DNA from: Isurus oxyrinchus
Lineage: Eukaryota
DNA length: 64,000 nucleotides
Assembly (NCBI GenBank): GCA_026770705.1
Contig: JANJGN010000088.1
Location: 1,240,001 to 1,304,000, forward strand
Reading direction: 5' to 3'
A program made the position numbers and the translations under genes. Shown here piece after piece: positions 18,880 to 55,501 of this stretch (positions within the stretch are counted from its first letter, which is position 1; each line of letters begins with the position of its first letter). A model generated the notes under the pieces. The model saw nothing but the letters and a program-made list of their open reading frames with translations. It made no database searches and was not told the DNA's origin.

Positions 18880-21310
18880 CCCCCCGACCTTACCCCAATA
18901 TCTTGGCCTGAGGTTTATTTGACCAAAATGAATGTGACTGGGGGAGAAATCACTGGGAGAATGGTTAATCTCCTCCAATATCTGGTCCTTGGGTATATTC
19001 TCCTAATATCTACCTCTTATGCATATATCCAAATGAATGTGCTTGGTGAGGAATTCTCTCACACATCAGACTGAGAGTCTCTTTCAATATCTGGGCTGGA
19101 TTTGTATTCCCCCAATATCTGATCCTGGGCTGTAATTGTCTGATGAATGTAATCAGGGAAATTCCCACATACGTGTGACTGGGTTTCTTGCCCCCAATTT
19201 CAGGTCCTGGGTTGTATTGCCCAATGACTGTACTTGGGTGTTCTGTTATATATGGGTCTGAAAATCTCCTCCAATATTTGGTCCTAAGTTCCAATTCCCC
19301 AATATTTGGTCCTTAGTTGCATGCCCCCACTGTTTGTACTGGGTGGATTCCCTCATAGCTGTGACTGAGAATCTTCCCCTATATACTTTCCACAGGTACG
19401 AGCCCACACTTTTTGTCCTGAGGAATCTCTTTTACAGGGTACTGAAAATCTCCCCCTAGTATCTGGTCTTGAGGTGCATTTCCCCAAAAAGACATTTGCC
19501 TCATTCACAGAACTGAGAATTCCCAACCTTCCTGACAACCTATGGCTGTTGGGTGCACTCCCCAGTTCTTTGTACTTGTGGGATTTCCTTGCTCATGGAT
19601 CTGGGATCCCTTCCTCCACCTTACCTGTTTCTGGAGCCTTCCCCCCCACCCTCCACCCAGTGAACAAGCTTGGCAGGAAATTAGTTCATGCATTTTTCTG
19701 AAAATGTCCCCAATATCTGGACCTGGGTTGCATTCTCTAATATCTGTCCCCACTGTGGTTCAGTCTCATAATATCAGTTTGCTGGAGGATATTCCCCCTA
19801 TGACATACAGGTGGGCTATTTGCACACTCTTTGTGGTCTGGTGATCCCACCACCCCACCCCCGCCACCCCCCAAATATTTGGCCTTAGGGTGTCTCTGTG
19901 ACTTGTGTCTAGCCCTTGGGTTTATTCACCCAGTATCTGGTCTTGAGCTGTATTCCCCCATTGACTATTTGGGGGAATTTCCTCATACATGGGGCTGGCA
20001 ATCTCCCTCAATATCAGGTCCAGGGATGTTCTCCACCCATGACCATATGGGGGAAAGCTATTCCCTCATGCATGGGGCTGTGATTATTTTAAGATATCTG
20101 TTCCTGGGATGTAAGCCTCCAATACCTGATCCTGGAATTTTCTTCCCAATGGCCCTACTGGGGGGATTCCATCATGCATGTTGCCCATCCCGAATTAGCC
20201 TTGAATGTGGCTTGCTAGGCCATTTCAGAGGGCAGCTAAGAGCCAACCACATTGCTGTAGGTCTGGAGTCTGATGTAGACCAGACCAGGTAAGGACAGCA
20301 GATTTCCTTCCCTGAAGGACATCAGTGAACCAGATGGGTTTTTACAACAATCAATGATAGTTTCATGGTCACCATTACTGAGATGAGCTTTGAATCCCTG
20401 ATTTTATTAACTGAATTTAAATTCCACCAGCTGTCATGGTGGGATTTGAACCCATGTCCCTAGAGCTTTAGCCTGACCCTTGGATTACTAATCCAGTGAC
20501 TACCACTCTGGCACCATCTCCTCCTGTTTCCCTAGTGAATGTGATTGGGGGATATTCATTCAGCAGACTGTGAAACTCCTTCAATATCTGGTCTTGGGTG
20601 TGTATTCCTCAATAACTAGGAGATACATGGGACTGGGAATCAATGTCTGGTTCTGCGGGTGTATTCCCCAGAAACTGAGGAATTCACTCATACATGGAGC
20701 TGGGAATATCCTCCAATATCTGGTCCCTGTTTATATTCCCCAGTAACTGAGGAATTCACTCATACATGGGGCTGGGAATATCCTCCAATATCTGGTCCCT
20801 GGTTATATTCCCCAGTAACTGGGGGATTCACTCATACATGGAGCTGGGAATATCCTCCAATATCTGCCCTTGGGCATATTCCCCAGTAACTGAGGAATTC
20901 ACTCATACATGGGGCTGGGAATATTCTCCAATATCTGCCCTTGGGCATATTCCCCAGTAACTGGGGGGATTCATTCATACATGGGGCTGGGAATATTCTC
21001 CAATATCTGGCCCTTGGGTATATTCCCCAGTAACTGGGGGGATTCACTCATACATGGGGCCGGGAATATCCTCCAATATCTGGTCCCTAGTTACATTGCC
21101 CAGTAACTGGGGATTTCATTCATACATGGAGCTGAGAATATCCTCCAATATCTGGTCCCTGGTTATATTGCCCAGTAACTGGGGGATTCACTCATACAGG
21201 GGGCTTGGAATATACTCCAATATCTGCCCTTGGGTATATTCCCCAGTAACTGGGGGATTCACTCATACATGGGGCTGGGAATAGCCTCCAATATCTGGCC
21301 CTCGGTATAC
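18880..21310. repeat. 72-bp minisatellite: ~9 homogeneous copies at 20655-21310 plus degenerate copies at ~18880-20170
   Basis: Unit tattccccagtaactgaggaattcactcatacatggggctgggaatatcctccaatatctggtccctggtta; period 72 (20662 to 20734). Confidence 0.85.
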
Positions 21311-21391
21311 TTGCCCAATGAGCACACTCATTCTCCCTCAGTTCTATCCATCTCTTCACACAACCACTTATTTCATTTCATGTTTTCATTT

Positions 21392-21397
21392 TTTATT
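21392..21397 (-). terminator. Poly(A) signal of the distal TM2'
   Basis: AATAAA ~425 nt downstream of the TM2' stop codon. Confidence 0.65.
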
Positions 21398-21820
21398 GAG
21401 TCAATTTCAAAACAAATCTTTAATATCAGTGAAAACATTTTTGAAAAAGCTGCAGGCAGTAATCTGAACAACATTTGTGTTAAGAATACTTTACACAAAA
21501 CCCAGAGAATCAGCCCTTCCCTCCTTCCCATACTCAGACTCCCTCCTGACTCCCCCTTCCCTAATCCCCCATTCCCATCTCCCCTGCTCCCTATTCCCGC
21601 TCCCCTCTCTCCTTCCAAACTCACCCCTCCCATCCCAATTCCCCTTCCCAATCTTCCCCAGTCCATTTGAAGTTTTATCTCCCAGAATGAGCTGTTGCAG
21701 TGCAGTAGCTGAGTATTTTCCAGTGTGTGATGGAAAGCTCCATTCCCAAACATCACAGGGATATTTCTGGACAATTCACATCTTGTATAAGTCTGAATGT
21801 GAGCTGCATGTGCCTGCTGG

Positions 21821-21832
21821 TCACTGCTGAAT
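21821..21832 (-). CDS. IgW: IgW TM2' (distal cytoplasmic exon), IQQ*
   Basis: TTTATTTTAAAG|ATT CAG CAG TGA; paralog of 24436-24447; weaker AAG acceptor. Confidence 0.55.
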   Translation of the reverse strand: MQQ

Positions 21833-22523
21833 CTTTAAAATAAACAGCGGAGTAAGATACATGTGTGTGCCAATCATATATCAGGTGGTATCACCCAAAA
21901 AGCCAGGTAGTCTGTCTGTCTGTTAGGAAATGGACCCCGAATGACAGGGGATTTGTCCTTATTCTGGGGGATGGACCCTAAAGCAAAAGGGGTCTGTCCT
22001 TATTCTGGGAGACGAAGCCTGCAAAATGAATTCTTCTTTGCGCTCCAGACCGTGATCATTGAGGATTCTGTTGTTCAGGGTCACAGTTACTGTCATGTGT
22101 TTCCCAAGGTTAAATGTCGTGTAACCCAGCAGAACAAACTGCCCTTGTTCTTGGAGACAGGGGCCTAAAGGACAAGTGGTCTAATTAAATTCTGGGCAGT
22201 GGATGCAAAAGGAGAGGTGGTCTGACCCGATTCTGGGACATGGGGCCTTAAGGACAGGTTGTCTGACCCTGTTCAGGGACATGGGCCTAAAGGACAGGGA
22301 ATCTGACCTTCTGGGGTGAATCAAGACCCTCAGATCAGGTAAAGAGAAAATCTTCAAGGTGCCAGTGGCTGTGAAAGGTTGCCCACTGTGCTGTCCGTCT
22401 GCACCCAGTCTGGTAGCTGGAATCTCAGAGTCAGATAATAAGATGTGGCGATAAATTGAAGATAAATCATGACTTTACTGTATGGGTACGTTGTTGTTCA
22501 TTTGATAGTTAAAGTCTGGTTAC

Positions 22524-22666
22524 CTTGACAACAGTAACAAAGGTGCTGTAGAGGAAACTTAGAATAAACAGAATGGCGAAGGCAGCAACTGTCAGTGCGT
22601 TGTCGTCTCCTTCCAAACCTTCCACTTCTTCCTTTCCTTCCTCTCCTATCATATTTGGAAGGTCAA
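22524..22666 (-). CDS. IgW: IgW TM1' (distal transmembrane exon)
   Basis: TTTCAG|xDLPNMIGEEGKEEVEGLEGDDNALTVAAFAILFILSFLYSTFVTVVK|GTAACC; acidic spacer and Ig CART-type TM motif; 143 nt, phase 1/0. Confidence 0.9.
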
Positions 22667-23389
22667 CTGAAACAAAGAGAAATTGGAGCTGATAAAGATG
22701 ACACTGGGCATTTCATCAAGGTCCACAATGTCTCAGTTTGAAGATAATAGCGAGGGAGGAGATCACAGCGGAGGAGAACTGGGAGCTGTGAATAATTAAA
22801 AAGTCTTTCTCTCTTGACCTGTCACTTCTGGTCCTGTCTCCCACTTTGTCTTTCTCCCTCTCTCACTGCCTTTCCTCTATCTCTCAGAGATTCTGTCCCC
22901 TTGTTTCTGCTTCACTGTCACTCTCAGTATCTCTGTCTGTAACACTTACTGTTTCTCTCAAATGTGCACAAACAACAGATGATGCTAAAACTGTTTCCAA
23001 AATCTCAGTCCTTCAGTCACCCCAGTTGTTTCCTCATTTCTCTATCGTATTATCCAATCTACCAGTTCAAACACAAGTTTTCAACTCCCTGACTCCAAAA
23101 ACACTCTAATCCGCAAACAAACCATTGATTGTGAAGCGCCCTGAGATTATCCCCATCGCCAGGGTGAGATTTTTAATGACTTCAAATATTTATTTCTTTT
23201 TGAATCTCTGCTTCTATAACATTTTAATCAATCTAATAGTTCCTGAGGCAGCATTAAATGAACTTGTGTAGTCACCAGGTACAACAACTGCTCAATGGCA
23301 CAAATTCTTGTGAGTGGTGATGTGAGCGAGTGAGGCACCAAATGGGATCAGAAAGTCTGCGATTCATGGATTACTGTGATGTGGTTTTG

Positions 23390-23725
23390 TGCATCGCAAT
23401 CTCACCCCGGATCAGAAAATTGTGGGTTCAAGTTCCACTCCAGATACTTGAGTGCATAATTCAGGCCGACACTGTGATGCAGGACTGAGAAAGTGCTGCT
23501 GTGCAGGAGGTACCGCCTTTCAAATGAGGCATTAAACGATGGCCCTCAGGTTGATGTGAACTTGTAAATGGTCCCACAGCACAATTGGAAGAAGAGCAGG
23601 GGAGTACTCTGCAATGTTCTGAGCCAGCCAACATTTATCCCTCAACCAAAACACCTAAAACCAGATGATCTGGTCATTATCACAGTTCGTATGGTGGGAA
23701 TTACTGTGCACAAATTGGAACTGGT
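23390..23725 (+). mobile_element. tRNA-derived SINE, Deu-domain-like (copies also at ~26810-27140, 29920-30310, 31600-31990, 38425-38815)
   Basis: B-box-like gggttcaagtycc, followed by the conserved core gtgctgcactg..ggaggtgccgcctttc..atgag.cattaaac. Confidence 0.7.
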
Positions 23726-24008
23726 AAACCAAGAAAGACCAAAGCCATCCTGATGTTCGGATGATACAAGGATAATGGAGTTGTGCACTAATCATAGCAA
23801 CCAGTCTCTTATCAATTAGTCCACAATAAACCCAGACAGGAGGCAAGGTAAGCCCAATGGTGGGAGCATTGGAAACCATAGGTCCAAGGACCCCTGTTCC
23901 TCACAAGCATGTTACACTCACCGCACATCATGTCCGAAGATACTCATTTACTGTCTCCCGAAACACAACAATAATGAACACTCAAAACCGAAACCTTTTC
24001 ACATTATG

Positions 24009-24014
24009 TTTATT
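24009..24014 (-). terminator. Poly(A) signal downstream of the proximal TM2 (duplicated copy of the secretory poly(A) signal)
   Basis: AATAAA in a context nearly identical to 27426-27431. Confidence 0.6.
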
Positions 24015-24435
24015 GAAATTGGATCAGTACATTGACATTTTGCCACATACGAAACACTTTTGAAAAAGTTGCAGGCAGTAATCTGAACATTTGCTTTGAG
24101 AATATTTTGCTCAAGACCCAGAGAATCAGCCCATCCCTCCTTCCCATATCCACACTCTCTCCTGACTCCCCCTTCCTGACTCTCCCATTCCCATCTCCCC
24201 TGCTCCCCATTCCCACACACCTCTCACCTTCCTAATGCGTCCCTCCCATCCCAATTCCCCTTCCCAATCTTCCCCAGTCCTTTTGAAGTTTTATCTCCCA
24301 GAATGAGCTGTTGCAGTGCAGTAGCTGGGTATTTTCCAGTGTGTGATGGAAAGCTTCACTCCCAACATCACAGGGATATCTCTGGACAATTCACATCTTG
24401 TATAAGTCTGAATGTGAGCCGCATGTATCTGCTGG

Positions 24436-24447
24436 TCACTGCTGAAC
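24436..24447 (-). CDS. IgW: IgW TM2 (proximal cytoplasmic exon), VQQ*
   Basis: GTTTATATTACAG|GTT CAG CAG TGA; phase 0 matches the TM1 donor; 3-residue tail analogous to the Ig K-VK tail. Confidence 0.7.
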   Translation of the reverse strand, partial: VQQ

Positions 24448-24539
24448 CTGTAATATAAACAGCGGAGTAAGATACTTGTGTGTGCCATAGTCTATCTATC
24501 AGGTGGTATAACCCAAAAAGCCAGGTGGTCTGTCTGCCT

Positions 24540-25200
24540 ATTAGGAAATGGACCCTAAAGGACAGGGGATTTGAACTTATTCTGGGAAATGGACCCAAAA
24601 GCAAAAGGGGTCTGTCCTTATTTTGCGAGATGGGCCCTGAAGGACAGGGGGTGGGATTTCCTGGCCCCAACTGCCCTGGGATTGTCTAGTCCCGCCGAAG
24701 GTCTGTGGAGCTTTGGCTGGGCCACTTCAACTTCCACGGCGGGTTCCACCACAGCGGAGCTGGACAATTCTGTCCGGGTATCTGTCCTTATTCTGGGAGA
24801 TGACGCCTGCAGAGTGAGTTCTTCCTTGTGCTCGGGCCATGATTATTGAGGATTCAGTTGTTCAGGGTTGTAGTCATTGTCTTGTGTTTCCCAAGGTTAA
24901 ATGTAGTGTAATCCAACAGAACAAACTGTCCATGTTTTTGGAGATGGGGGCCTAAAGGACAAGTGGTCCAATCTTATTCTTAGAGGTGGATGCTGAAGGA
25001 GAGCTGGTCTGTTCCTATTCTGTGACATGCGGCCTTAAGGAGAGGTTGTCCGACTCTATTCTGGGACATCATATCTAAAGAAGAGGTGGTCTGACCATAT
25101 TCTGGGACATGGGACCGAAAGGAGAAGGAGTCTGACCATATGCTGGGAGATGGACCCTAAAGGACAGGCTGTCTGACCTCATTCTGGGACATGGGGAGTG
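24540..25200. repeat. Degenerate 41-bp minisatellite in the TM1-TM2 intron (also ~21925-22315 and 25660-25740)
   Basis: Unit ~tattctgggacatggggcctaaaggacaggtggtctgaccc; period 41 (25057 to 25098). Confidence 0.75.
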
Positions 25201-25204
25201 AGTG

Positions 25205-25660
25205 GGCTGTCCTACGGGGAAAGGTTGGACAGACTGGGCTTGTTTCCACTGGAGTTTAGAAGAGTGAGGGGTGATTTAATTGAAGTATACAAGATCCTGA
25301 ACAGCCTTGACAAGGTGCATGTGGAAAGGATGTTTCCTCTTGTGGGTGAGACCTGAACAGGGGGGCACTGTTTTAACATTAGGGGTCCACCTTTTCGGGC
25401 AGAGATGAGGAGAAATTTTTTCTTGGATGGGTGTGCGACTTTGGAATTCTCTGCCTCAGTTGGTGGTGGAGGCGGGGCCATTGAATATTTTTAAGGCAGA
25501 AGTAGATAGATTCTTGTTAGGCAAGGGCATCAAAGGTTATTGGGGTTAGATCAGAATGTGGAAATCGAAACACAAGAAGATCAGCCATGATCTTATTGAA
25601 TGGCGCAGCAGGTTCGATGGGCCGAATGGTCTACTCCTGTTCCTATTTCTTATGTTCTTA
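25205..25660 (+). mobile_element. CR1 3' fragment present only in the proximal TM cassette
   Basis: GLFPLEFRRVRGDLIEVYKIL-type coding remnant plus CR1 3' UTR; absent from the 21430-24050 copy. Confidence 0.85.
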
Positions 25661-25944
25661 TTCTGGGCCATGGAGCCTTATGGACAGGTTGGCCTGTCCG
25701 TATTCTGGGACATGGGGCCTAAAGGACCCTTCTTCTGGGGTGAATCAAGACCCTCAGATCAGGTAAAGAGAAAATCTTCAAGGTGCCAGTGGCTGTGAAA
25801 GGTTCCCCACTGTGCTGTCCGTCTGCACCCAGTCTGATAGCTGGAATCTCAGAGTCAGATAATAAGATGTGGCGATAAATTGAAGATAAATCGTGACTTT
25901 ACAGTATGGGTACGTTGTTCATTTGATAGTTAAAGTCTGGTTAC

Positions 25945-26087
25945 CTTGACAACAGTAACAAAGGTGCTGTAGAGGAAACTTAGAATAAACAGAATGGCAA
26001 AGGCAGCAACTGTCAGTGCGTTGTCGTCTCCTTCCAAACCTTCCACTTCTTCCTTTCCTTCCTCTCCTATCACATTTGGAAGGTCAA
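25945..26087 (-). CDS. IgW: IgW TM1 (proximal transmembrane exon)
   Basis: TTTCAG|xDLPNVIGEEGKEEVEGLEGDDNALTVAAFAILFILSFLYSTFVTVVK|GTAACC; 143 nt. Confidence 0.92.
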
Positions 26088-27425
26088 CTGAAACAAAGAG
26101 AAATTGGAGCTGATAAAGATGACACTGGGCATTTCATCAAGGTCCACAATGTCTCAGTTTGAAGATAATAGCGAGGGAGGAGATCACAGCGGAGGAGCAC
26201 TGGGAGCTGTGAATAATTGAAAAGTCTTTCTCTCTTGACCTGTTGCTCCCCGGTCCTGTCTCCCACTTTGTCTTTGTCTTTCTCCCTCTCTCACTGCCTT
26301 TCCTCTATCCCTCAGAGATTCTGTCCCCTTGTTTCTGCTTCACTGTCGCTCTCAGTTTCTCTTTCTGTAACACTTACTGTTTCTCTCAAATGTGCACAAA
26401 CAACAGATGATGCTAAAACTGTTTCCAAAATCTCAGTCCTTCAGTCACCCCATTTCTCTATCATATTATCCAACCTACCAGCTCAAACACAAGTTTCTGA
26501 CTCCTTGGCTCCAAAAACACTCTAATCCGCAAACAAACCATTGATTGTGAAGCGCCCTGAGATTATCCCCATCGCCAGGGTGAGATTCTTAGTAACTTCA
26601 AATATTTACTTCTTTTTGAATCTCTGCTTCTATAACATTTTAATCAACCTAACAGTTCCTGAGGCAGCGTTAAATGAACTTGTGTAGTCACCAGGTACAA
26701 CAACTGCTCAATGGCACAAATTCTTGTGAGTGGTGATGTGAGCGAGTGAGACACCAAATGGGATCAGAAAGTCTGCAATTCATGGATTACCGTGATGTGG
26801 TTTTGTGCATCGCACTCTCGCCCCTGGATCAGAAAATTGTGGGTTCAAGTTCCACTCCAGATACTTGAGTGCATAATTCAGGCCGACACTCCAATGCAGG
26901 ACTGAGAAAGTGCTGCACTGCAGAAGGTGCCGCCTTTCAAATAAGGCATTAAACAATGGTATTGAGGTTGATGTAAACTTGTAAATGGTCCCACAGCACA
27001 ATTGGAAGAAGAGCAGGGGAGTACTCTGCAATGTTCTGAGCCAGCCAACATTTATCCCTCAACCAAAACACCTAAAACCAGATGATCTGGTCATTACCCC
27101 AGTTCTTATGGTGGGAATTACTGTGCGCAAATTGGAATTGGTAAACCAAGAAAGACCAAAGCCATCCTGATGTTCGGATGATACAAGGATAATGGAGTTG
27201 TGCACTAATCATAGCAACCAGTCTCTTATCAATTAGTCCACAATAAACCCAGACAGGAGGCAAGGTAAGCCCAATGGTGGGAGCATTGGAAACCATAGGT
27301 CCAAGGACCCCTGTTCCTCACAAGCATGTTACACTCACCGCACATCATGTTCGAAGATACTCATTTACTGTCTCCCGAAACACAACAATAATGAACACTC
27401 AAAACCGAAACCTTTTCACATTATG

Positions 27426-27431
27426 TTTATT
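27426..27431 (-). terminator. Poly(A) signal of the long secretory form
   Basis: First canonical AATAAA seen downstream of the CH10 stop (~335 nt). Confidence 0.65.
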
Positions 27432-27763
27432 GAAAATGGATCAGTACATTGACATTTTGCCACATACAATGAACCCTTCTTGGGGTCTCACACAGGTTTC
27501 ACACTTGGTCAAATGCAGCACAAAAAACGTTTGAAAACCAACTCAGGACTTCAGATGTTTGGAGAGAACGATGTTTGTTGTAGGATCAGATGGTTAAATT
27601 TAAATAATTTCTTTCTCAGTTATTGAACAAGGTCAGATTTTGTTCACATTTTCTAGTGATCTGCGACAAAAAGCGAGATTTCATAGCAACCATGACAATC
27701 CTCTGGTTGTCTTAACCATCCATTTACAGGGATTATGTAAATGGGTGATTGAATCATTAGATG

Positions 27764-28146
27764 CTATGAACAGGATTTGAAGCCTTCAGTTAGAACAAGT
27801 GACACATTGACCAGGGTGGGTTTGCTGTGAGATTTATTGATGCTCCTGAACAGATTTGTTGTGACTGACTCGTGTCCCACCACACAGGAGTAAGTGGTGC
27901 CGCTGTTCCACTCGTCTGCGGAGACTGTCAACCGACTGCCCGAGTTCCAGCCACTTCTGCCATCCTCGGTCACCGGCTGGTTCACAAATCCTGACTTCAG
28001 AAGGGTGTCGTTGGCCATCCAGGCCAGGTAGATCTCTGCAGGGGAGAATCCGGTGACCAGGCAAACCAGGGTCGCGGTGTGGTCTGTCTCCATCTCATCT
28101 TGTGAAGGGGGAAGGAGGTAGACTTGAGGGTGAGTCTTAATGTCAA
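27764..28146 (-). CDS. IgW: IgW terminal C exon (CH10) with long secretory tail
   Basis: C1-set Ig domain PQVYLLPPS...LVCLVTGFSP...W...YSCVVGHE, then tail KPTLVNVSLVLTEGFKSCS* with N-V-S sequon and penultimate Cys; TTCCAG acceptor. Confidence 0.95.
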
Positions 28147-29213: not shown

Positions 29214-29534
29214 CTTGGGCTTTCCTGATTGACCTCTTCTCAGGCGTTGGCAAACTCTTGTCCTCCACCAAACACAAATACTCTACCCCACTCTCCCACT
29301 CTGCAGCAAGGACTGTCAGTCTGCTGAAGATCATGTCTTTGTCTCCATTCCTCTTGGGACCCTGAGTCTTCACTCCATCTTCTCTCTTGATTCCATCCGC
29401 CTGCCAGGTTACCCTGACTCCCTCTAAATCACTGTGAAGTACCTCGCAAAGTATAGTCGCTGTCCTGTTCCTCCAGATCTCTTCAAAAGGAGGCTTCCTT
29501 AAGGTGACTGAGATCCCAGTGTCCAAACATTCAT
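29214..29534 (-). CDS. IgW: IgW CH9 exon
   Basis: ECLDTGISVTLRKPPFEEIW...ILCEV...W...YLCLVED; TCCTAG/GTACGT splice sites; 321 nt, phase 1-1. Confidence 0.93.
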
Positions 29535-30382
29535 CTAGGAGAAAAATTATCATTGTTATTTCGTGATTCCCTCATGGGATGTGGACATGGCTTGCAAGGC
29601 TGGCATTTCATTCACATCGCCACATGTACAATAGTGGCTTGTTCGACTCTTTCAGAGGGCAGCTCTGAATCAGCCACATTGGTGTCTGCCTGTAGCCACA
29701 TCTGGGGCAGACAGGGTTAGGACAGCAGGTATCCTTCCCTCAAGGAAGATGAACAAAGCTGTTGGGTTTTTAATGACAATCTAATGCCTTCAAAGTCACT
29801 TTACTGATTCTAACGTTTTATTACCAATTTTTACTTTCTGCAACTGAATTCAAATTCTCAAGCTGTCTTAGATTTGAACTCAGTTGTCTGCATTAGTGAT
29901 TGTACATGTCAACCTTGGCACGTTGGTAGGGCAAGCTCCTCTACCTGCGATGGTTGTGCGTTCACGACCCACTACGGATACTCGAGCACAAATTCAAGAA
30001 TGACAAACCCCATGCCGACACTGAGGGAATGCGGCACTGTTGGGTATGCCGTCTCTCAGTAAGAGACATTAAGCCACGGCCCCTTCTCAGGCCAGCCAAA
30101 GAGATCACATCTTCGCCAATTTGGAAAAAAAGGGGAGAGGGGCCAAAAATTAACAGATTACCTGGTCTTCATCATAAAGCAGTTTATCGGGCCTTGCCTT
30201 ATGCAAATTAGTTGACGCTTTCTTTGCATTGAAACAGTGACTACACCTCAACAAAAGTACTCTTTTGGCTGTGAGGCACATCCTGAGGATGTGAAAGCTA
30301 CAACATTAATGCTATTGTCTCTTTCTTTGTCCAGACCTCTAGAATACTACCCCACTCACATAGTCACTACATTACCACATAC

Positions 30383-30700
30383 GTTGGAAGTTCTTCACCG
30401 TCTCACTGGTGTTGAAGTTGGAGGGTGGATGAGACACTGCACAGGTGAAGGTTGAGCCTTTCCTCCATTCCTCTGCACTCACAGTCAGGTAGTGCCTGAC
30501 GCAGAATGTCCTGGCCTGTTCCAGAGCAGTGTGTCCAGCGTGGGCCTTGGAGGAGATCACAGCACCATCTTTCTCCCAGGTGACATTTATGAGGTCTGGG
30601 TAGAATCCAGTGATCACACACTGGAGTGTGGCTGTGCTCTTACCCTTGATCTCTTCAGTTGGTTGAAACAGCAATCTGACCTTGGAACTTTTTGTCTCGA
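30383..30700 (-). CDS. IgW: IgW CH8 exon (type B, divergent copy)
   Basis: ETKSSKVRLLFQPTEE...LQCVITGFYP...W...FTCAVSHPPS; TTCCAG/GTATGT; 318 nt. Confidence 0.92.
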
Positions 30701-30790
30701 CTGGAATAGACAGACAAAACCAAGAAGCTGTTAAATTCCTTCCCTGAAAGTGAACAAAGTTAGTTATGTAATTTCTGATCTCTCACCCAC

Positions 30791-31093
30791 CTTTTACACT
30801 CTTTGCCCGTTTTGAAATGGGTGAGGATGAGGAACCACTTTGAGCAGAGCACACGAACTCCACCCCGCTGTCCCATTCCTCCGCAGTGGTTCGGAGTCGG
30901 CTGGTGACGATGTATTGTGTTCCTTCCTCTCTCTGTCGCTGGGTTGAAACCCCTTTACTTCGCTCCTGCCCGTTCATGTTCCAGGTGATGCGGACCTGGC
31001 TCGGATTGGAACGGACCACTATACACACCAGGGTAGCTGTCTTGTTGATCCAAACCTCTTCCATAAGTGGACTTTGGATAAAGACAGATATTT
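30791..31093 (-). pseudogene. IgW: IgW CH7 exon (type A): open frame but canonical splice acceptor destroyed
   Basis: Near-identical to CH3, but the acceptor reads CCCAAAATATC instead of CCCAG|AAATATC (1-nt deletion); donor intact. Confidence 0.8.
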
Positions 31094-33704
31094 TGGGAAG
31101 GGGAAATTATACAAATCAGAAGAACGGGCATTAATTAGTATCAGCCACTTGTGGCCTTCAATAGGAATCCAGTTTAATGTGTTTCACCTGGAGCTGCTAA
31201 TCGATCATGCGACACTGCACCTAAATATTTTAACAAGTTGAACATTAGAAAATCCCAGGGTTGTTTAAAAAATGTCTTGCAATTCTCAGTTTGCAAGTTT
31301 TGACTGAGAAAACATCGTAGGACAAGCAAGAACCCACTGGATCCCTTTTGAATCTGTCTGCCCTTACCGTGACCAAGAGATCCACAGTGAGGACTGCAGT
31401 TGAGTTGTGGGGTGAGTGGCTTTTAGATGCGACAATGTTACTAACAATGCAATCTCTGGTTTGTGAAATGGAGTGAAACAGAGATACAAACTGCTTAGCA
31501 AAAGGAACAATTCAGTAAATGCTTTTTCACTGCGTGGGGCTGTGGAATGATTTTTGATGTTGAGCACACTGAATGAACGAAGGGCCCATTTCTTTTAGCT
31601 GCGGCTCAGTTGATAGCACGCTCACCTCCGAATCAGAAGGTTGTGGATTCATGTCCCACAAAACTCAAAGTTGATGCCCCAGTGCAATACTGAGGGAGTG
31701 CTGCGCTGTCGGAGCACTGCCTTTTGGATGAGAATTGAAAATGAGGCGCCAAATGCCGCCTTAGGTAGATGTAAAAGAAGGACATCAGGGAAGATCGTTT
31801 CAATACCCTGATCAGTATATATCCCTCACTCAACATCACAAAAACAGGATCCCTGGTATTTGTCACATTACTCTTTGTGGGAACTTGCTGTGTATAAATT
31901 GGCTGCTGTGTTTCCAACTTTACAACAGTGGCTGCACTTCAAAAGTACTTCATTTTGGCATGTCCTGTGGTCACGAAAGATGACATGTAAATGTGAGCCT
32001 TTCTTTACTTTTCTTCCTCTAATTGGAGCCGGCCCGGATCACATCAGTTTTAAAATTCTTATCCTAATGTTCACGGCTTCACCTCTCCCTATCTCTGTAA
32101 TCTTCTCCAGCCCTACAGCCGCCCAGAAACTCTGCACAACTCTAGACACTTGTACATCCTTATCTTCCTTTCCCCCTGCATTGGTGGCTGTGTCTTCAGC
32201 CGTCTAGGCCCTAATGCCTGGAATTCACTGCCTAAACCTCAGCCACCTGCCACCTCTCTCCTCATTTGAGATGCTGCTTAAAACCTCTCTATTTTGCCAA
32301 GATTTTGGCCACAAGATCTCCTCCTGGAGGCTCAGCATCAGTTTTGCTTTGGCTTTGGTCCTGTGAAGCACCTTGGGATGTTTTACTACATTAAAGTCTC
32401 TATATCGATTCAAGTTATCATTGGTGATCATTCCCTGTCAAAGAAGGTTAGTTTGCATTGGCAGAGCAACTCCCATGAATCAGGGGAGTAACAGAAGTCC
32501 CCTCTTCCTGCAGGTTGGGGATCATTTCTGCATAACACGGACTTCCCCTCATTTCATTCCGGAGTTTACCGGCCTGGGAAGGGAATGATTGATTGAATTC
32601 TTCACATTTTCTCCTTTGTGCTCAACTCCCACGGATCGCAATCTCTTCAGATATCCCGCAGCTCACTGCGTGTTCTGTATACTGTTAACACAGACACACA
32701 CGCATATACACACAGACACGCACATGCACACACACATTCACTGCGTGAATCACAACTGCTTTGATCCACACTAATTGTTCTCGCTCAATGTAATGTTAAC
32801 ACTTACAGAGTGACTGGATTACTTCATCTGTGTCCATATCAAAACCTGTCATGAACACCACATATTGACTCTTCCGGCTGCAGTTTCAGCTGATGTTCAG
32901 TGTCTGTCTAATAGGACTGTGTCTTTTATTAGGTTATTTATTCTGTTTCTCTCTCTCTTGCCTTTTAAACAAAACCTTGATCAATTTCCTTCCAGATTGG
33001 GATTGCTCAGTATATTAATGATTAAGTCTAGGTGTTTTTCACGTTGATCTCCCATCATAAAACCTCATAGGGTTGGGAACAATCCCCTTATCACTGTAAA
33101 ATAATAACATTATTGGGCAAGAGGTGTTTAATTCCATTTATCCTTTGTGCGGAATTTTGAAAAAACACTTCCCTGACTTGGATTCCTGTGAACATTGAGC
33201 TCCTGACATTGACTGAGATGAGTATCCAGACTGGGAGAGTGATGGGAACTGTTTCTATTTCTGCAACCCAGAATTTCATCTAAAACAGACCAGGCCATTC
33301 AGGGCACCAGTTAAATCCTTGTGTGCTGAATCACCAACTTGCCTCAGGATCATTGAAGGGGGCCAATCCGGCTATTTCACTGGATCAATGAGTCCTACTC
33401 CAGCACCTCCCAACCTCCCGGCCTCTCTGGGTGACAAACAGGCTTCTAATCCTTTCCAACTTGAGAGTCAGACTTGAGAGACAATGGTCAGTCGGTGGGG
33501 TCGGGTCCCTATTCACTCTGACCCAGCGCAGGTCACAAAGAAATGACCATTCAGATAAGGAGTGGGTTGTCTGGGGGAACCCAAACTAGGGCTGTAACTT
33601 CTCGCAGTATTCACACTTTCATTCTGACGGATACCCTGGGATAGATTTGAACCTGCCAGATGGTTTGTAATAAAATTCAACGACCAATTCCATTCACAAA
33701 CTCA

Positions 33705-33856
33705 TCACTTTATTTCACATTTTTGTTGGTAGCAGTCATATTGGAGCTGATCACCATTTTTGAGGGTCACATTGAGGTTAGTCTGGTAGAGAAACTTCGG
33801 CATACAGTCAGAACAAGAACAAGGAGAACATGGAACTGGACGACATGCGTTTCCAC
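33705..33856 (-). CDS. IgW: Cysteine-rich secretory tail exon secA' (after CH6)
   Basis: TTCCAG|(G)GNACRPVPCSPCSCSDCMPKFLYQTNLNVTLKNGDQLQYDCYQQKCEIK*; 152 nt; AATAAA at 33709-33714. Confidence 0.85.
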
Positions 33857-34234
33857 CTGGAACTGGAAGAGTTGCAGATTTAAGTGTTATGCATTTTCAC
33901 CTCCCCTCCCCTCTACTGGGGAAGTGGGAGCTCCATGCAGCCCCTGGCCTCTGCTCTGTCCTGTCTTCTAAAGATCCTAAAAGAACTAGATCATGTAGAC
34001 ACTGACGAGCTGTTTTTACCTTGTCCAGAACAGTAAAATCAGTGGGTATGGCCTCTGTTTGAAGGGGGCAGGATGAACAATTGTTCTTTCTTTACTTGGC
34101 CTCTAGATTACTCGTCCACCTAGGTAATAACTACATCACCACACCTACGTTGTGAGTTTGAATTTGCCTGGCCCCAAGAGAATTTATATGAGAAGACCAT
34201 GATGTCAAGATTGGAATCAGGCCCAGGACCTTAC

Positions 34235-34552
34235 CTGGGACATTCTTCACCTCCTTGCTGATGACGAAGTTGGAAAGTGGATGAGACACTGTACAGCTGA
34301 AGGCTGATCCTGTCCTCCACTCCTCTGCACTCACAGTCAGGTAGTGCCTGACATTGAAAGTCCCTGCCTGTTCCAGAGCGGTGAGTCCAGCATGGGTGTT
34401 GGAGGAGATCGGAACACCATCTTTCTGCCAGGAGACGTGTAAGAGCTCTGGGTAGAATCCAGTGATCACACACTCGAGTGTGGCTGTGCTCTGATTCTTG
34501 ACCTCTTGGGCTGGGGGAGGCAGCAGCCTGACCTTGGGACTTTTTGGCTCGA
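34235..34552 (-). CDS. IgW: IgW CH6 exon (type B)
   Basis: EPKSPKVRLLPPPAQE...LECVITGFYP...FSCTVSHP; AG/GTAAG; 318 nt; protein identical to CH4. Confidence 0.93.
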
Positions 34553-34642
34553 CTGGAATAGACAGGCAAAACAAAGAAGCTGTTAAATTCCTTCCCTGAA
34601 AGTGAACAAAGTTAGTTATGTAATTTCTGATCTCTCACCCAC

Positions 34643-34945
34643 CTTTTACACTCTTTACCCGTTTTGAAATGGGGGAGGATGAGGAACCACTTTGAGCAGA
34701 GCACACGAACTCCACCCCGCTGTCCCATTCCTCCGCAGTGGTTCGGAGTCGGCTGGTGACGATGTATTGTGTTCCTTCCTCTCTCTGTCGCTGGGTTGAA
34801 ACCCCTTTACTTCGCTCCTGCCCGTTCATGTTCCAGGTGATGCGGACTTGGCTCGGATCTGAACAGACCACTTTACACACCAGGGTAGCAGTCTTGTTGA
34901 TCCAAACCTCTTCAACAGAAGGATTTTGGATAAAAACTGACATTT
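34643..34945 (-). CDS. IgW: IgW CH5 exon (type A)
   Basis: MSVFIQNPSVEEVWINKTATLVCKVVC...W...FVCSAQ; CCCAG/GTGGG; 303 nt. Confidence 0.93.
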
Positions 34946-36656
34946 CTGGGAAGCGGAAAGTGAAAACTTCAGAAGGATTGACATTATCTGGTGTTGGCAG
35001 CCTTCAGAATTTTAGGGTGGTCTCTCCCTACTGATGTTGGTGGATGATAGGTCAACACAGAAGTGACTTTAAACTGCCACCTGTTTTAATCTCTTGAGTT
35101 AATACTGGGTGAAATACACAGCATTTAAGTTTGCAGCAAACTGAGCCTTTAGAAAATCCAAGGGTCGCTTTAGCAATGTCTAGTAATTCTTGACTCGCAT
35201 GTTATGATTGAGAAAACATAATCAGAGCACTAAGAACCTGCCGTATCCATTTTGAATTTGTTTGCTGTGCCTGTGACCAATAGGCCCACAGTGAGGAGTG
35301 CAATTGCATTCTAGGACTGAGCAACATTTAGATGTGACACTGTGAATCAATTGCAAAGCCCAGTTTGTTAAATGGAGTGAGGCAGATGCAGATCGCTTAG
35401 CAATGGAAACAATTGAATAAAGGCTTATTTACTTACAGCCCCTCCACCTCCCCGCTGTTGTATGGTTGATTTGTGACACTGAGCAGATTGAATCAATGAG
35501 GTGCCCTTTTTGGAGACAGCCTCGGATTGCCTCCATTTCAAAATCCTTATCCTAGTGTTGACATCTCGCTGGCCTTGCCTCTCCATATCTCTGTCACATT
35601 TGCCAGCCCAATAACCGTCTGAAAATGCTGCTTTCCACCAACATTAACCTCTTGTACACCCCACACTCCCTTCGCCCTAACAGTAGCAGCTGTCCATCAG
35701 CCATCTAGACCCTGCTCTGTGTAAGTCTATCCCTGAATCACAATTACATGGCCAACCCTCTCTCCTCCTTTAAGACGCTCCATAAAAACGACCTCTGCCC
35801 CCGCCTCCTCCTTTGGTTCTTTATCAATTTCTGTCCGATTACTCTCCAATGCAGAACTTTAGACCTCTGTCCACACTAAAGGTGATATATAAAAGCAGGT
35901 TATTGTAGATAAGTCTCTGTGAAGATAGATGATTAGTGTGCAGTGGCAGAGCAAGCCACAAATCAGATGTAGTGACAGCTCCTTTGCTGGAGCTCGGGGA
36001 TAATTTATGCAAAACGTTTACATCCCATCTCCAGTTTCATGTCCAAGAGACTAGATAAAAAGCAAATGTTTTACCGAGTACTTCATACGTTTTCCCCATT
36101 GCCAGCAGTTTCCCAAAAGACCATTGTCACTTCAGATATCCCGCAGCTCACTGCGTGTTCTGAACACTATTCACGCGCACAAACACACATTCACTGTGCG
36201 AATCACAACTCTTCTCCCTCTATATAATGAACAGTAGACACTTGGGTATGATGGGAAGGATGACAATTACTGCATCAGGATCAAATCCTTTCATGAGCTT
36301 CGAGAACCAACTCCTCCGGCTGCAGTTTCAGATGATGTCCTGTACACAGGGTGGTGGGATTTTCCAATGGCCATTTGGGTGGCTCGCCACATCTGCTGCA
36401 GAGGGACCCACTGCAGTGGAGCCAGAAAATCCCGGCCAGTGTCTGACAAGACCCTATCTTTCATTAACTTGAGATGGGTGAACGGAAGAGTTTATCACTT
36501 CTGCTGCCATGGATTTCCATCCAGAACCTACCGGATTGTACAGGAGCCAGATGGAACCCTGCAGCCGGTCTCAGCGGTTTGCCTCAGGACCAGCATCATT
36601 GAAATGGGACAGCCTTCTTTTACTGGCTCAACGTGATTCAATTCACAACCAGCCCA

Positions 36657-36829
36657 TCACCGAATTTCACACATTTGTTGACAACATTTATACTGGCATG
36701 GATCAGCATCAGAGAAGGTCATGTTACAGTTAATCTGATATAGGAACCTCAGCATCCAGCCAGAACAAGAATCAGTCAGACAAGAGCAAGCAGCATTTCC
36801 ACCCGGAACAGGAAGATTTGTGTTTCCAC
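36657..36829 (-). CDS. IgW: Divergent cysteine-rich secretory tail exon secB (after CH4)
   Basis: TTCTAG|(G)GNTNLPVPGGNAACSCLTDSCSGWMLRFLYQINCNMTFSDADPCQYKCCQQMCEIR*; 173 nt; frame open; homologous to secA. Confidence 0.78.
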
Positions 36830-37207
36830 CTAGAACTGGAAGAGCTGCGGATTTAAGTGTTATGCATTTTCACCTCCCCTCCCCTCTACTGGGGAAGTGG
36901 GAGCTCCATGCAGCCCCTGGCCTCTGCTCTGTCCTGTCTTCTAAAGATCCTAAAAGAACTGGATCATGTAGACACTGACAAGCTGTTGTTACCTTGTCCA
37001 GAACAGTAAAATCAGTGGGAATGGCCTCTGTTTGAAGGGGGCAGGATGAACAATCGTTCTTTCTTTACTTGGCCTCTAGATTACTCGTCCACCTAGGTAA
37101 TAACTACATCACCACACCTACGTTGTGAGTTTGAATTTGCCTGGCCCCAAGAGAATTTATATGAGAAGACCATGATGTCAAGATTGGAATCAGGCCCAGG
37201 ACCTTAC

Positions 37208-37525
37208 CTGGGACATTCTTCACCTCCTTGCTGATGACGAAGTTGGAAAGTGGATGAGACACTGTACAGCTGAAGGCTGATCCTGTCCTCCACTCCTCTG
37301 CACTCACAGTCAGGTAGTGCCTGACATTGAAAGTCCCTGCCTGTTCCAGAGCGGTGAGTCCAGCATGGGTGTTGGAGGAGATCGGAACACCATCTTTCTG
37401 CCAGGAGACGTGTAAGAGCTCCGGGTAGAATCCAGTGATCACACACTCGAGTGTGGCTGTGCTCTGATTCTTGACCTCTTGGGCTGGTGGAGGCAGCAGC
37501 CTAACCTTGGGACTTTTTGGCTCGA
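37208..37525 (-). CDS. IgW: IgW CH4 exon (type B)
   Basis: Ig C1 domain; TTCCAG/GTAAG; 318 nt; 89-nt intron from CH3. Confidence 0.93.
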
Positions 37526-37614
37526 CTGGAATAGACAGGCAAAACAAAGAAGCTGTTAAATTCCTTCCCTGAAAGTGAACAAAGTTAGTTATGTAATTTC
37601 TATCTCTCACCCAC

Positions 37615-37917
37615 CTTTTACACTCTTTGCCCGTTTTGAAATAGGAGAGGATGAGGAACCACTTTGAGCAGAGCACACGAATTCCACCCCGCTGTCCCAT
37701 TCCTCCGCAGTTGTTCGGAGTCGGCTGGTGACGATGTATTGTGTTCCTTCCTCTCTCTGTCGCTGGGTTGAAACCCCTTTACTTCGCTCCTGCCCGTTCA
37801 TGTTCCAGGTGATGCGGACCTGGCTCGGATTGGAACAGACCACTTTACACACCAGGGTAGCTGTTTTGTTGATCCAAACCTCTTCCATAAGTGGACTTTG
37901 GATAAAGACAGATATTT
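37615..37917 (-). CDS. IgW: IgW CH3 exon (type A)
   Basis: ISVFIQSPLMEEVWINKTATLVCKVVC...; CCCAG/GTGGG; 303 nt. Confidence 0.93.
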
Positions 37918-41575: not shown

Positions 41576-41640
41576 TTAAGTTAATACCAGTCTGCATTAC
41601 TGATGATATATTCATTTCTCCCCCCTCAGGCACCACTTAC

Positions 41641-41949
41641 CCCCTTCGTTTCTCGTGTATCTCATGCTGATCCTCTTATTGAATCTTGAAAGTGTGTGGG
41701 ACACTTCACAGGCGTACTCAACCCCTTTCTTCCATTCCGCCACAGGAACAGTCAGGTAAGTGACTGTTTCAAATGTAGTGTCTGTGCTTTGTCGGGAAGT
41801 CAGAACATTACCCGCTTTGTCCTCCTGGCCTTTCTTCCAGGAAACCTTTATGCCGTCGGGATCAAATCCGGATATCATACAGCCCAGGACAGTGGTAGTT
41901 TGATTGTAGACAAACTCCGCGGATGGAACAAGGGTGGTGACAATCGGCG
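41641..41949 (-). CDS. IgW: IgW CH2 exon
   Basis: PIVTTLVPS...LGCMISGFDP...W...YACEVSH; TCCAG/GTAAGT; 309 nt. Confidence 0.94.
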
Positions 41950-42349
41950 CTGGAGAGGTAAAACATTGCAATGTTTCAGATTACACTGTTGTTTTGCCAC
42001 AAGAAAGATGTACTCTATTCCCTCAGCATCTCGAGTAACTGTCACGATGCCAACTCCCATTCATCATCAATTTGACTGGGTTCCCTCTGACCCTCCCCTG
42101 AAATATTTGCTAATCCTTTCAGTTCTAGATTCCGGCAAATGGGCTCAACCTTTCAAATTTTAGATCCTGAGTTTCTTACTACACACGTTCAACTTTTTCT
42201 TCCTGGTACCTGACAATCTCACAGTGCCGATAACCAGTCTGAGATTGGCACAAATAGGGTAGCACTTCATAAAACTGAGACTTTGGGGATTTCAGGCAGA
42301 ATTTACAATTCTCCATAATAATGGGGACAAATTTAATCTCGACTTGACA

Positions 42350-43903: not shown

Positions 43904-44218
43904 CTTTAGGTTTCATGATCTGACGCTCCACCATTTCATTTGACTTGTAACCCGCCTTACAGTGGTAGACTGTTTTGGCATTCCAATCTGATGCAGAGAC
44001 TTTGAGCACGCTGCTCATCATGTAATTCTTATCATTCCCCTGGACTGCCGCATACGTCTGAATTCCAGTGGTAATGACCCGATTGTTACTGGACCATATC
44101 AGAGTGATGCTCTTAGCATGAAAGTCCTTGACCAGGCAGAAGAAGCTGATCTCATCTTGGTCCCTGTCCATGCCACAGGAAGGGTTGGGGATGAAGACCG
44201 ATGGTGCAAACTGGGCAA
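43904..44218 (-). CDS. IgW: IgW CH1 exon
   Basis: [17 protein letters not shown]...FFCLVKDF...W...YHCKAG; the extra Cys in PSCG sits at the usual light-chain-bonding position; TTTCAG/GTTAG; 315 nt. Confidence 0.94.
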
Positions 44219-44404
44219 CTGAAATATAAATAGTTTCACACAGATAAGCCTAGTAAAGAAACACATATAAATATACGAACTAGGAGCAGGAGTGGGCCTT
44301 TTGGCCCTTTTGGCCCTGCTCTGCCATTTGATAATGGCTGATCTGATTGCAGCCTCAATCTACTTTCCTGTCTACCCTCTTTCACCTTTGACTCCCTTGT
44401 TAAT

Positions 44405-46150
44405 CAGTGTAGAGGGAGCTTTACACTGTATCTAACCGCGAGCTGTACCTGTCCTGGGTGTGTTTGATGGGGACGGTGTAGAGGGAGCTTTACTCTGTAT
44501 CTAACCCCATGCTGTACCTGTCCTGGGAGTGTTTGATGGGGACAGTGTAGAGGGAGCTTTACACTGTATCTAACCGCGAGCTGTACCTGTCCTGGGTGTG
44601 TTTGATGGGGACAGTGTAGAGGGAGCTTTACTCTGTATCTAACCCTGTGCTGTACCTGTCCTGTGTGTGTTTGATGGGGACAGTGTAGAGGGAGCTTTAC
44701 TCTGTATCTAACCCCGTGCTGTATCTGCCCAGGGAGTGTTTGATGGGGACAGTGTAGAGGGAGCTTTACTCTGTATCTAACCGCGAGCTGTACCTGTCCT
44801 GGGTGTGTTTGATGGGGACGGTGTAGAGGGAGCTTTACTCTATATCTAACCCCGTGCTGTACCTGTCCTGGCAGTGTTTGATGGGGACAGTGTAGAGGGA
44901 GCTTTACTCTGTATCTAACCCTGTGCTGTACCTGTCCTGTGTGTGTTTGATGGGGACAGTGTAGAGGGAGCTTTACTCTGTATCTAACCCCGTGCTGTAT
45001 CTGCCCAGGGAGTGTTTGATGGGGACAGTGTAGAGGGAACTTTACTATGTATCTAACCGCGAGCTGTACCTTTCCTGGGTGTGTTTGATGGGGACAGTGT
45101 AGAGGGAGCTTTACTCTGTATCTGACCCCGTGCTATACCTGTCCTGGGAGTGTTTGATGGGGACAGTGGAGAGGGAGCTTTACACTGTATCTAACCGCGA
45201 GCTGTACCTGTCCTGGGTGTGTTTGATGGGGACAGTCTAGAGGGAGCTTTACTCTGTATCGAACCCCGTGCTGTACCTGTCCTGGGAGTGGTTGTTGGGG
45301 ACAGTGTAGACGGAGCTTTACTCTGTATCTAACACCGTGCTGTACCTTTCCTGGGAGTGTTTGATGGGGACAGTGTAGAGGGAGATTTACTCTGTATCTA
45401 ACCCCATGCTGTACCTGTCCTGGGAGTGTTTGATGGGGAAAGTGTAGAGGGAGCTTTACTCTGTATCTAACCCCGTGCTGTACCTGCCCTGGGAGTGTTT
45501 GATGGGGACAGTGTAGAGGGAGCTTTACTCTGTATCTAACCCCGTGCTGTACCTGCTGTGGGACTGTTTGATGGGGACAGTGTAGAGGGAGCTTTACTCT
45601 GTATCTTACCCCGTGCTGTATCTGTCCTGGGAGTGTTTGATGGGGACAGTGTAGAGGGTGCTTTTCTCTGTATCTAACCCCGTGCTGTACCTGCCCTGGG
45701 AGTGTTTGATGGGGACAGTGTAGAGGGAGCTTTACTCTGTATCTTACCCCGTGCTGTATCTGTCCTGGGAGTGTTTGATGGGGACAGTGTAGAGGGAGGT
45801 TTACTCTGTATCTAACCCCGTGCTGTACCTGTCCTGGGAGTGTTTGATGGGACAGTGTAGAGGGAGGTTTACTCTGTATCTAACCCTGTGCTGTACCTGC
45901 CCTGGGAGTGTTTGATGGGGACAGTGTAGAGGGAGCTTTACTCTGTATCTTACCCGGTGCTGTATCTGTCCTGGGAGTGTTTGATGGGGACAGTGTAGAG
46001 GGAGCATTACTCTGTATCTAACCCCGTGCTGTACCTGTCCTGGAAGTGTTTGATGGGGATAGTGTAGAGGGAGATTTACTCTGTATCGAACCCCATGCTG
46101 TTCTTGTCTTGGGAGTGTTTGATGTGATGGTGTCGAGGGAGATTTACTAA
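44405..46150. repeat. 69-bp minisatellite, ~25 copies, just upstream of CH1
   Basis: Unit cagtgtagagggagctttactctgtatctaaccccgtgctgtacctgtcctgggagtgtttgatgggga; period 69 (44405 to 44474). Confidence 0.96.
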
Positions 46151-46209
46151 AATTGTACAATCCTAGGGAGCATGGCAGTTCAGAGGGAGTTTTATTCAGT
46201 ATCTCAGTG

Positions 46210-53558: not shown

Positions 53559-53897
53559 ATGGGTATAAGATCCAACCTGAAATAAACTGTCCCAAACAAG
53601 CAGCCAGTAGTTTTATTAACTCCTCCATCTGTATCCGTGTGTCCCCCATGCACCAGGTGGCAAACTCAGGGTTTTCCAGGACTTTACAGGAAGATGAGAT
53701 AATCCACAAGGAGTTTTCATTGTTCTTCATCCTCTCTCTGTTACTCACTGTTCCTTCACCTTTCAAATAATATCTTCAAAGAAAGTTGTTCACACAGCCA
53801 GATTATTTAATTGGGATCTGATTTATATCCACGGGTCAGGAGGTAAAGGTCGGTGATATCGCCCAAAGGGTCCAGTTTAAATCGTTTTCCTGTGACA

Positions 53898-53978
53898 GGT
53901 TTTTGAATGGAGGGATCCCCCGTCTCTCTCACTGTGCCACGTAGTATAGACACTGTGATCCACACCCGTACATTAACC
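53898..53978 (-). other. IgW: D2 segment (core TCTATACTACGTGG, 53937-53950) with 12/23 RSS
   Basis: 5' RSS CACTGTG-12-ACATTAACC; 3' RSS CACAGTG-23-TCAAAAACC. Confidence 0.92.
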
Positions 53979-54623: not shown

Positions 54624-54705
54624 GGTTTTTGAATGGAGGGATCCCCCGTCTCTCTCACTGTGTCACTCCAATATAGACACTGTGATCCACACCCGTACAT
54701 TAACC
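54624..54705 (-). other. IgW: D1 segment (core TCTATATTGGAGTGA, 54663-54677) with 12/23 RSS
   Basis: 5' RSS CACTGTG-12-ACATTAACC; 3' RSS CACAGTG-23-TCAAAAACC. Confidence 0.92.
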
Positions 54706-55054: not shown

Positions 55055-55093
55055 AGTTTTTGTCCCAGTCCAGCCCTGCTTCCTCTCACTGTG
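55055..55093 (-). promoter_or_regulatory. V recombination signal, 23-bp spacer
   Basis: CACAGTG (55093-55087) + 23 nt + ACAAAAACT (55063-55055). Confidence 0.96.
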
Positions 55094-55389
55094 TCTTGCA
55101 CAGTAATAGGTGGCGGTGTCGTCCACTCTCAGATAAGGAATCTCAATGGAGGTTGTGGAAGATTCAGTTGAAAACGTGATTCGACTCTGAACTCCAGGCG
55201 CGTAGTAAGTGCTATATCCTTGATGGTAACTAAGTAACCATTCCAGCCCTTTCCCAGGGACCTGTTTCACCCAGTGCATCCTGTAGCTGCTGAGACTGAA
55301 CCCACTCACTGTACAGGACAGTGTGACAGAGTGCCCCGGCTTTTTCACAGCTGATTTGGGCTGGGTCAGCACGACAGCGGACCAGACAC
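55094..55389 (-). CDS. IgW: IgW VH exon (germline, unrearranged)
   Basis: AVVLTQPKSAVKKPGHSVTLSCTVSGFSLSSYRMHWVKQVPGKGLEWLL...RITFSTESSTT...YYCAR; canonical Cys/Trp/Cys; short FR3 as in shark IgW V; TTAACAG acceptor. Confidence 0.96.
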
Positions 55390-55501
55390 CTGTTAATAAA
55401 AGAGAAAAAGAAGTTAATAAACCCATTGCACAAAGAGAGGGTCAAAGAGTCTCTGAATAAGCAGCCGCTCTGTGTGGGGATAAAGCCACAGGACCCCTCA
55501 C

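Follow-up and report, generated by a model that had tools for sequence, protein, structure and literature searches.

Tandem duplication of the membrane-anchor cassette in an IgW-type heavy-chain minicluster of a shark

Introduction

Immunoglobulin heavy-chain (IgH) genes usually carry a single transmembrane (TM) cassette per cluster. Shark immunoglobulin W (IgW), the orthologue of IgD, is described as a minicluster with six to eight constant (C) exons (PMC4279169, PMC5192425) that yields two-C and four-C membrane forms (PMC4279169, PMC5192425, PMC6795676). Tandem duplication of C exons is well known for IgW/IgD and is described for sharks, coelacanth, sturgeon and teleosts (PMC5192425, PMC12227049, PMC6795676). 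Here we analyze a 64-kb stretch of DNA (G000:C88:1240001-1304000, referred to in its full length as the window), the minus strand of which holds a single Ig heavy-chain minicluster. To judge from its sequence, this is an IgW gene from a shark near the lamniforms it matched (Carcharodon, Cetorhinus), and its membrane-anchor cassette is present twice in tandem.

The locus has the layout of the known shark IgW miniclusters, with CH2 and CH4 (CH, heavy-chain C exon) serving as donors to the membrane exons; it differs from them, as far as the cited sources go, in that three of five clusters have two TM cassettes, with a secretory-type AATAAA behind the proximal cassette, and ten C exons. As in the C-exon duplications of IgW/IgD, a block has been duplicated in an accordion-like fashion accompanied by conversion, and the clusters studied here contain one, two or three CH3-CH4 blocks; in contrast to those duplications, the block of interest is the terminal TM cassette together with a polyadenylation [poly(A)] signal, adding an alternative end rather than domains. 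In mammalian IgM, an upstream secretory site competes with splicing to the membrane exons (PMC2874999), whereas here a second copy of the secretory-type site lies behind the first membrane cassette. No report of a duplicated IgW TM cassette was found in the literature searched; Rumfelt 2004, Zhang 2013 and Hsu 2016 lay outside its coverage and may describe it. The doubled cassette is a real variant of the IgW gene, and probably a redundant one. With it, the accordion-like duplication already known among the constant exons of IgW extends to the membrane cassette as well, and paralogous clusters in one genome vary in the number of C exons (6, 8, 10) as well as in the number of TM cassettes (1, 2).

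Two membrane cassettes in tandem

Self-alignment of the window revealed a tandem unit consisting of a proximal cassette (B) and a distal cassette (A), which are 94.5% identical over 1.83 kb and 81% and 89% identical in the other blocks (Table 1). A first-pass annotation of the window had described two tandem TM1+TM2 cassettes with intact TM1 splice sites, TM1 copies one residue apart (V/M) and TM2 tails reading VQQ and IQQ, all of which was confirmed: the two TM1 exons are each bounded by AG/GT and open in frame, with differences at 2 of 143 nt, one being V/M and the other silent, and both tails end in a stop codon directly after QQ. The TM2 acceptor is CAG in B and in both single-cassette clusters and AAG in A. 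The B-specific inserts listed in that annotation, a CR1 element and a piece resembling a miniature inverted-repeat transposable element (MITE) at ~24648-24775, are present as well, the latter within a 171-nt insert; the CR1 label is taken over from the annotation, and run depth indicates a high-copy repeat. Splicing from TM1-B to TM1-A would be out of frame, with the tail LTFQI-stop, and was seen in no contig.

The duplication in five paralogous clusters

The genome contains eight TM1 copies and five CH6 exons of the IgW class, all on C88, with two cassettes in three of the five IgW clusters (the window cluster, G532 and G945) and one in each of G688 and G1089. The usual arrangement of one TM cassette per cluster is therefore not found in three of the five, a variant feature that leaves class membership unaffected. 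Cluster G945, which harbors B, A and ten C exons, is ~97.5% identical to the window cluster, with a V segment just 90% identical, and its junction between the cassettes is the same as that of the window, with G945's own variants nearby on both sides. Because a diverged paralogue has the same junction, the tandem duplication of the whole membrane-anchor cassette is real and not a local misassembly, and the first-pass view of a real duplication is thereby supported more strongly than before. Cluster G532 also has B, A and ten C exons but, being an inverted and near-identical twin (99.3-99.6% identical to the window cluster over ~97 kb), it was not counted as independent evidence.

The C exons number 10, 10, 10, 8 and 6 in the window cluster, G532, G945, G688 and G1089 (3, 3, 3, 2 and 1 CH3-CH4 blocks), and the Scyliorhinus model P0002 appears to have ten as well. 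As a control, 10 kb was fetched at each of ten loci of a second heavy-chain family (L039-L048 on C126, C26, C38, C42 and C100), the last C exon of which is 63-64% identical and the TM1 different; each locus has one TM1, ~5 kb downstream, and a second TM1 was found in none of the ten. This family is probably IgNAR, a label that we infer.

Six distinct sequencing runs of 24 were examined (X13, X15, X16, X17, X18 and X21), none of them recorded as RNA. B-lineage sequence is also present in two other species, with B-type intron contigs in organism B (X17 record 17) and in organism C (X13), and in organism C contigs of the B lineage coexist with contigs of the A/single-cassette lineage. In X13, contigs covering the TM regions had a depth of ~12-13 and those covering CH5-CH6 one of 8-9, a ratio close to 8:5 that cannot be read as one of copy numbers.

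The inverted copy that includes G532 spans at least 97 kb (C88:1245189-1342136 vs 456372-553263), with identity dropping to ~95-96% beyond one end, and may be a recent segmental duplication, a product of conversion, or a second haplotype in the same contig.

Poly(A) signals and breakpoints

The duplicated unit begins 36 nt before the first AATAAA past the secretory stop, the putative secretory poly(A) signal, and ends ~34 nt before the native membrane-form AATAAA. Since the unit stops short of the latter, the native membrane signal is missing from B, behind which lies a copy of the secretory-side signal instead. The first-pass statement that an AATAAA lies behind each cassette thus holds for the presence of the hexamers (24009-24014 and 21392-21397) and needs correcting as to their nature, as B's hexamer is the secretory-side copy across the junction and not a membrane signal. 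Homology at the junction breakpoints is not significant (450 of 1000 shuffles reach the score).

Both breakpoints (27467, 24050/24051, 21433) lie 34-36 nt upstream of an AATAAA, and the length of the B 3' untranslated region (UTR) is kept within 2 nt, a regularity noticed post hoc. By depth arithmetic, a secretory 3' UTR contig of X16 ends near 27411, just past the 27426 hexamer; this was not counted, as contigs cannot show RNA ends.

Divergence and history of the cassettes

Over 2529 shared columns, the pairwise distance is 2.3% between B copies, 2.4% between A copies and 6.2-6.9% between B and A, the last rising to 10-15% in the 3' half, as against ~99% identity in TM1 together with its flanks. 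Cluster flanks differ by 1.4-4.1%. In phylogenetic trees, from which the near-identical G532 rows were left out, both B copies are set apart from A and the single cassettes with bootstrap values of 99 (5' segment) and 100 (3' segment). Since the divergence between B and A exceeds that between clusters, the duplication likely predates the expansion of the IgW clusters. Cluster G688 carries B's CR1-like insert and is B-type at sites as far as 24969 and mostly A-type at sites from 24946 on, a B-then-A mosaic that is the pattern expected of a collapse of B and A. The simplest history would be an early duplication, conversion of the 5' halves and later collapse in some clusters, in which the 5' halves of B and A would have been kept alike by gene conversion and single-cassette clusters such as G688 would have arisen by B/A recombination back into one. 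The TM1-TM2 intron of G688 also holds an expanded 41-nt array.

Transcribed membrane forms

That runs X15-X18 contain RNA is shown by contigs joined across introns, and the CH5-CH6 splice joint is seen among them. Contig ends entering the TM1 acceptor come from CH4a/b in X16 and X17 and from CH2 in X18, and all TM1-TM2 joints listed in these three runs are of the GTT (VQQ) type. A single X18 contig reads CH2-TM1-TM2 (VQQ type), and in X16 and X17 the TM1 contigs overlapped by CH4-TM1 contigs run on into a TM2 of the VQQ type, with the phase across contigs unproven. Membrane forms, in which CH2 or CH4 is spliced to TM1-TM2, are thus represented in the RNA, in agreement with the two-C and four-C forms described (PMC4279169, PMC5192425), and one spliced contig matches a B cassette. 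No A-type (ATT) TM2 contig is listed in X16, X17 or X18, which does not prove silence. The first-pass suggestion of different CH donors for each cassette is not supported, as CH2 and CH4 both enter TM1 and all listed TM1-TM2 joints are of the VQQ type. As to the codons put forward there as cassette markers, GTG/ATG in TM1 fails across clusters, V/M being private to the window cluster and G532, and GTT/ATT in TM2 separates the cassettes across clusters, as do differences in the 3' UTR.

Run X16 bears the same species label as the best-matching DNA runs, and X15 is the same sample. Two TM2-3' UTR types occur in X16, one resembling G1089 and the other cassette B of G945. Record 10, with 9 substitutions, 1 gap and GTT in TM2, has the count predicted for cassette B of G945 (G688 also predicts 9 plus 1, but with GTG), and records 9 and 11 match the predictions for G1089 (6 substitutions; 3 plus a private deletion). 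Site 21805 is non-A in X16 at 15.8 of 15.8 depth. In X15, record 9 has 3 differences from window B and no gap, and a G688-like allele would need at least 4, so at least one B-lineage allele is needed.

Protein differences between the cassettes

Each A lineage has TM1 changes of its own, V to M being confined to the window cluster and G532, while cassette A of G945 keeps V and has G to R instead; the conserved protein difference expected of distinct anchors was therefore not found. V to I in the tail is the sole difference that the three A copies have in common, and it is accompanied at the acceptor by three substitutions in an 8-nt stretch. IQQ is the derived state, because both single-cassette clusters have VQQ as their tail and so does the Mustelus membrane form P0007, which ends ...VTVVKVQQ and matches the TM end here.

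Use of the two cassettes

We consider it probable, at roughly 0.65, that in the double clusters CH2 or CH4 is spliced to TM1-B and TM2-B, that these transcripts end at the duplicated signal at 24009, and that A is little used. The proximal cassette B would likely supply most membrane mRNA, and this mRNA would end at the duplicated secretory-type AATAAA, stopping most transcripts before A; we infer both the end site and the resulting shielding of A. Cassette A would then be a redundant, little-used spare that drifted under relaxed constraint (AAG in place of CAG at the acceptor, I in place of V in the tail, and changes in TM1 that are private), and its changes do look like drift in a shielded copy. 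The effect on receptor function is likely small because the cassette proteins are almost identical.

Several observations weigh against this explanation. The RNA evidence consists of assembled contigs with a depth of ~15 from other individuals or species, which cannot show absence, levels or ends; assignment to B was by difference counts and a few listed sites rather than by contig sequence; and the VQQ contigs of organism B show 4-5 differences from A, a count that fits neither A (0-1) nor B (8-10) of this genome. The splice sites of A are all canonical, AAG being a legal acceptor preceded by a good pyrimidine tract. TM1-A and TM1-B differ at 1-2 of 143 nt, compared with ~5.5 expected from the adjacent intron (~4%; P 0.02-0.09), a conservation that could stem from selection on A; since the flanking intron is nearly as conserved as TM1, conversion is suggested as its source. 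Lastly, the double arrangement has been retained in at least two cluster lineages, and the junction at 24050/24051 is bridged by no read or contig shown in the runs examined (X21 was sampled at ~4 in 100, and no loose end at 21433 is among those listed).

Use of both cassettes through a poly(A) ladder, whereby cassette choice would follow B-cell activation and adjust the level of surface IgW and not its protein sequence, is the main alternative, to which we give a minor share of the probability. The 24009 hexamer and the G/U-rich sequence downstream of it are the same as at 27426, the splice sites of A are still legal and its poly(A) signal is the native one, and the secretory site of mammalian IgM is described as weak and regulated by CstF64, U1A, hnRNP F and ELL2 (PMC2874999); however, the second cassette is dispensed with in two of the five clusters, and no A-type contig is among those listed for X16, a weak objection given that contigs drop rare forms. 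One might extend this to a three-step ladder (secreted, membrane B, membrane A) in which resting cells would read through to A and activated cells would stop at B, a doubtful scenario under which B-cell state would select which membrane exons and 3' UTR the receptor has. No such arrangement was found in the literature searched. The alternative anchors or 3' UTRs envisaged in the first-pass annotation survive in part, in that two 3' ends are structurally possible, whereas anchors paired with CH donors are unsupported. Such pairing, for example of CH2 with one cassette and CH4 with the other to give different receptor tails, is improbable: two-C and four-C membrane forms are known (PMC4279169, PMC5192425) and the IQQ tail is common to all three A cassettes, but both donors lead to VQQ-type TM2, within the limits of phase given above, V/I is a conservative change in a three-residue tail, V/M is not cassette-wide, and single-cassette clusters exist.

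Two further explanations concern the origin of the tandem rather than its use. The same present-day function would result if B had come from an older IgW paralogue that is now lost or unassembled, which would agree with a 3' half of B that is 10-11% from A, G688 and G1089 alike, those being ~5% from each other, and with a junction without significant homology; with no such donor among the eight TM1 matches, and with the G688 mosaic fitting collapse, we regard this as quite improbable. Least of all do we expect an assembly artefact in which two haplotypes or paralogues of one cassette were joined in tandem. The lack of a junction-spanning read in the runs examined would be compatible with it, and the twin G532 could itself be a false duplication, but the 2.5% divergence of G945 around the same junction, with variants of its own on both sides, the B-A divergence of 10-15%, which is above allelic levels, the absence of N gaps from the fetched sequence and the coexistence of both contig lineages in organism C all argue against it. 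For poly(A) choice in shark B cells, the locus amounts to a natural experiment, with the same secretory-type signal before and after a membrane cassette and with products distinguishable by markers.

Gene layout and accompanying features

The minicluster is laid out as V-J-CH1-CH2-(CH3-CH4)x3-CH5-CH6/secretory tail-TM exons, with a conventional heavy-chain variable (VH) framework, a recombination signal sequence (RSS) and a joining (J) segment upstream of the C exons, as expected of a shark IgW cluster. The CH2 search returned ten matches, all multi-domain heavy chains of sharks or rays, of which P0005, P0008 and P0010 are named IgW and P0003 and P0004 bear the automatic name 'mu-like'. Identity of CH2 is 91% to the Carcharodon model, 82-83% to the Cetorhinus models (82% to the 'pancreatic IgW' model) and 64% to Triakis IgW P0005, and in full-length comparison the domain series and tail match P0005, as expected of the long-form C region of IgW. 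No Pfam family was found for TM1, and the search of the PDB gave generic IgM/IgA/IgG matches only. IgNAR was considered as the identity of the gene and rejected on account of the conventional VH framework and of CH1 plus nine further C exons, IgNAR having a single-domain NAR-type V and five C domains.

Table 1. Features of the IgW-type minicluster in window coordinates
Feature	Position	Strand	Remarks
VH exon with 23-spacer RSS	55056..55400	-	V-set domain 55090-55400; RSS 55056-55093
J segment, motif WGTGT	near 53100	-	motif match
CH1 exon	43910-44220	-
CH2 exon	41640..41952	-	exon end joined to TM1 in RNA contig of organism B
Three tandem CH3-CH4 pairs	30382..37917	-	CH4a/b ends joined to TM1 in RNA contigs
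CH5 exon	29214..29540	-	CH5-CH6 splice in contigs
CH6 exon with secretory tail	27764..28146	-	cryptic donor GT absent where donor to TM expected
First AATAAA past secretory stop	27426..27431	-	putative secretory poly(A) signal
Proximal cassette B	24051..27467	-	secretory poly(A) region, intron, TM1, intron with CR1 and MITE-like inserts, TM2, 3' UTR
TM1-B exon DLPNVIG...VTVVK	25945..26087	-	AG/GT intact, frame open
CR1-like insert	25205..25660	.	in B and single-cassette G688; absent from A and G1089
171-nt insert	24626..24796	.	B cassettes only; one organism C contig spans insert
TM2-B coding part, VQQ-stop	24436..24447	-	acceptor CAG
AATAAA behind TM2-B	24009..24014	-	duplicate of 27426-27431 hexamer; downstream G/U-rich sequence identical
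Distal cassette A (duplicated part)	21433..24050	-	trees group A with cassettes of single-cassette clusters
TM1-A exon DLPNMIG...VTVVK	22524..22666	-	AG/GT intact, frame open
TM2-A coding part, IQQ-stop	21821..21832	-	acceptor AAG; 3 A-specific substitutions within 8 nt
Native membrane-form AATAAA	21392..21397	-	outside duplicated unit; present in 5/5 clusters

The GT at the expected position of the cryptic CH6 donor is absent in all five clusters. The acceptor AG of the third CH3 (~31095) has been lost in the window cluster and G532 and is kept in G945; with a third CH3 that has no acceptor AG, the window gene likely makes nine-C instead of ten-C chains, or skips the block containing this CH3. 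D segments were not located by the pattern search used on the cluster. Between V and J lies a 365-nt direct repeat with 94.5% identity (53738-54828), which is likely the D-segment region. Minisatellites with units of 54, 72, 69 and 43 nt are found in and around the cluster at 857-2668, 20546-21317, 44267-46221 and 55803-58068.

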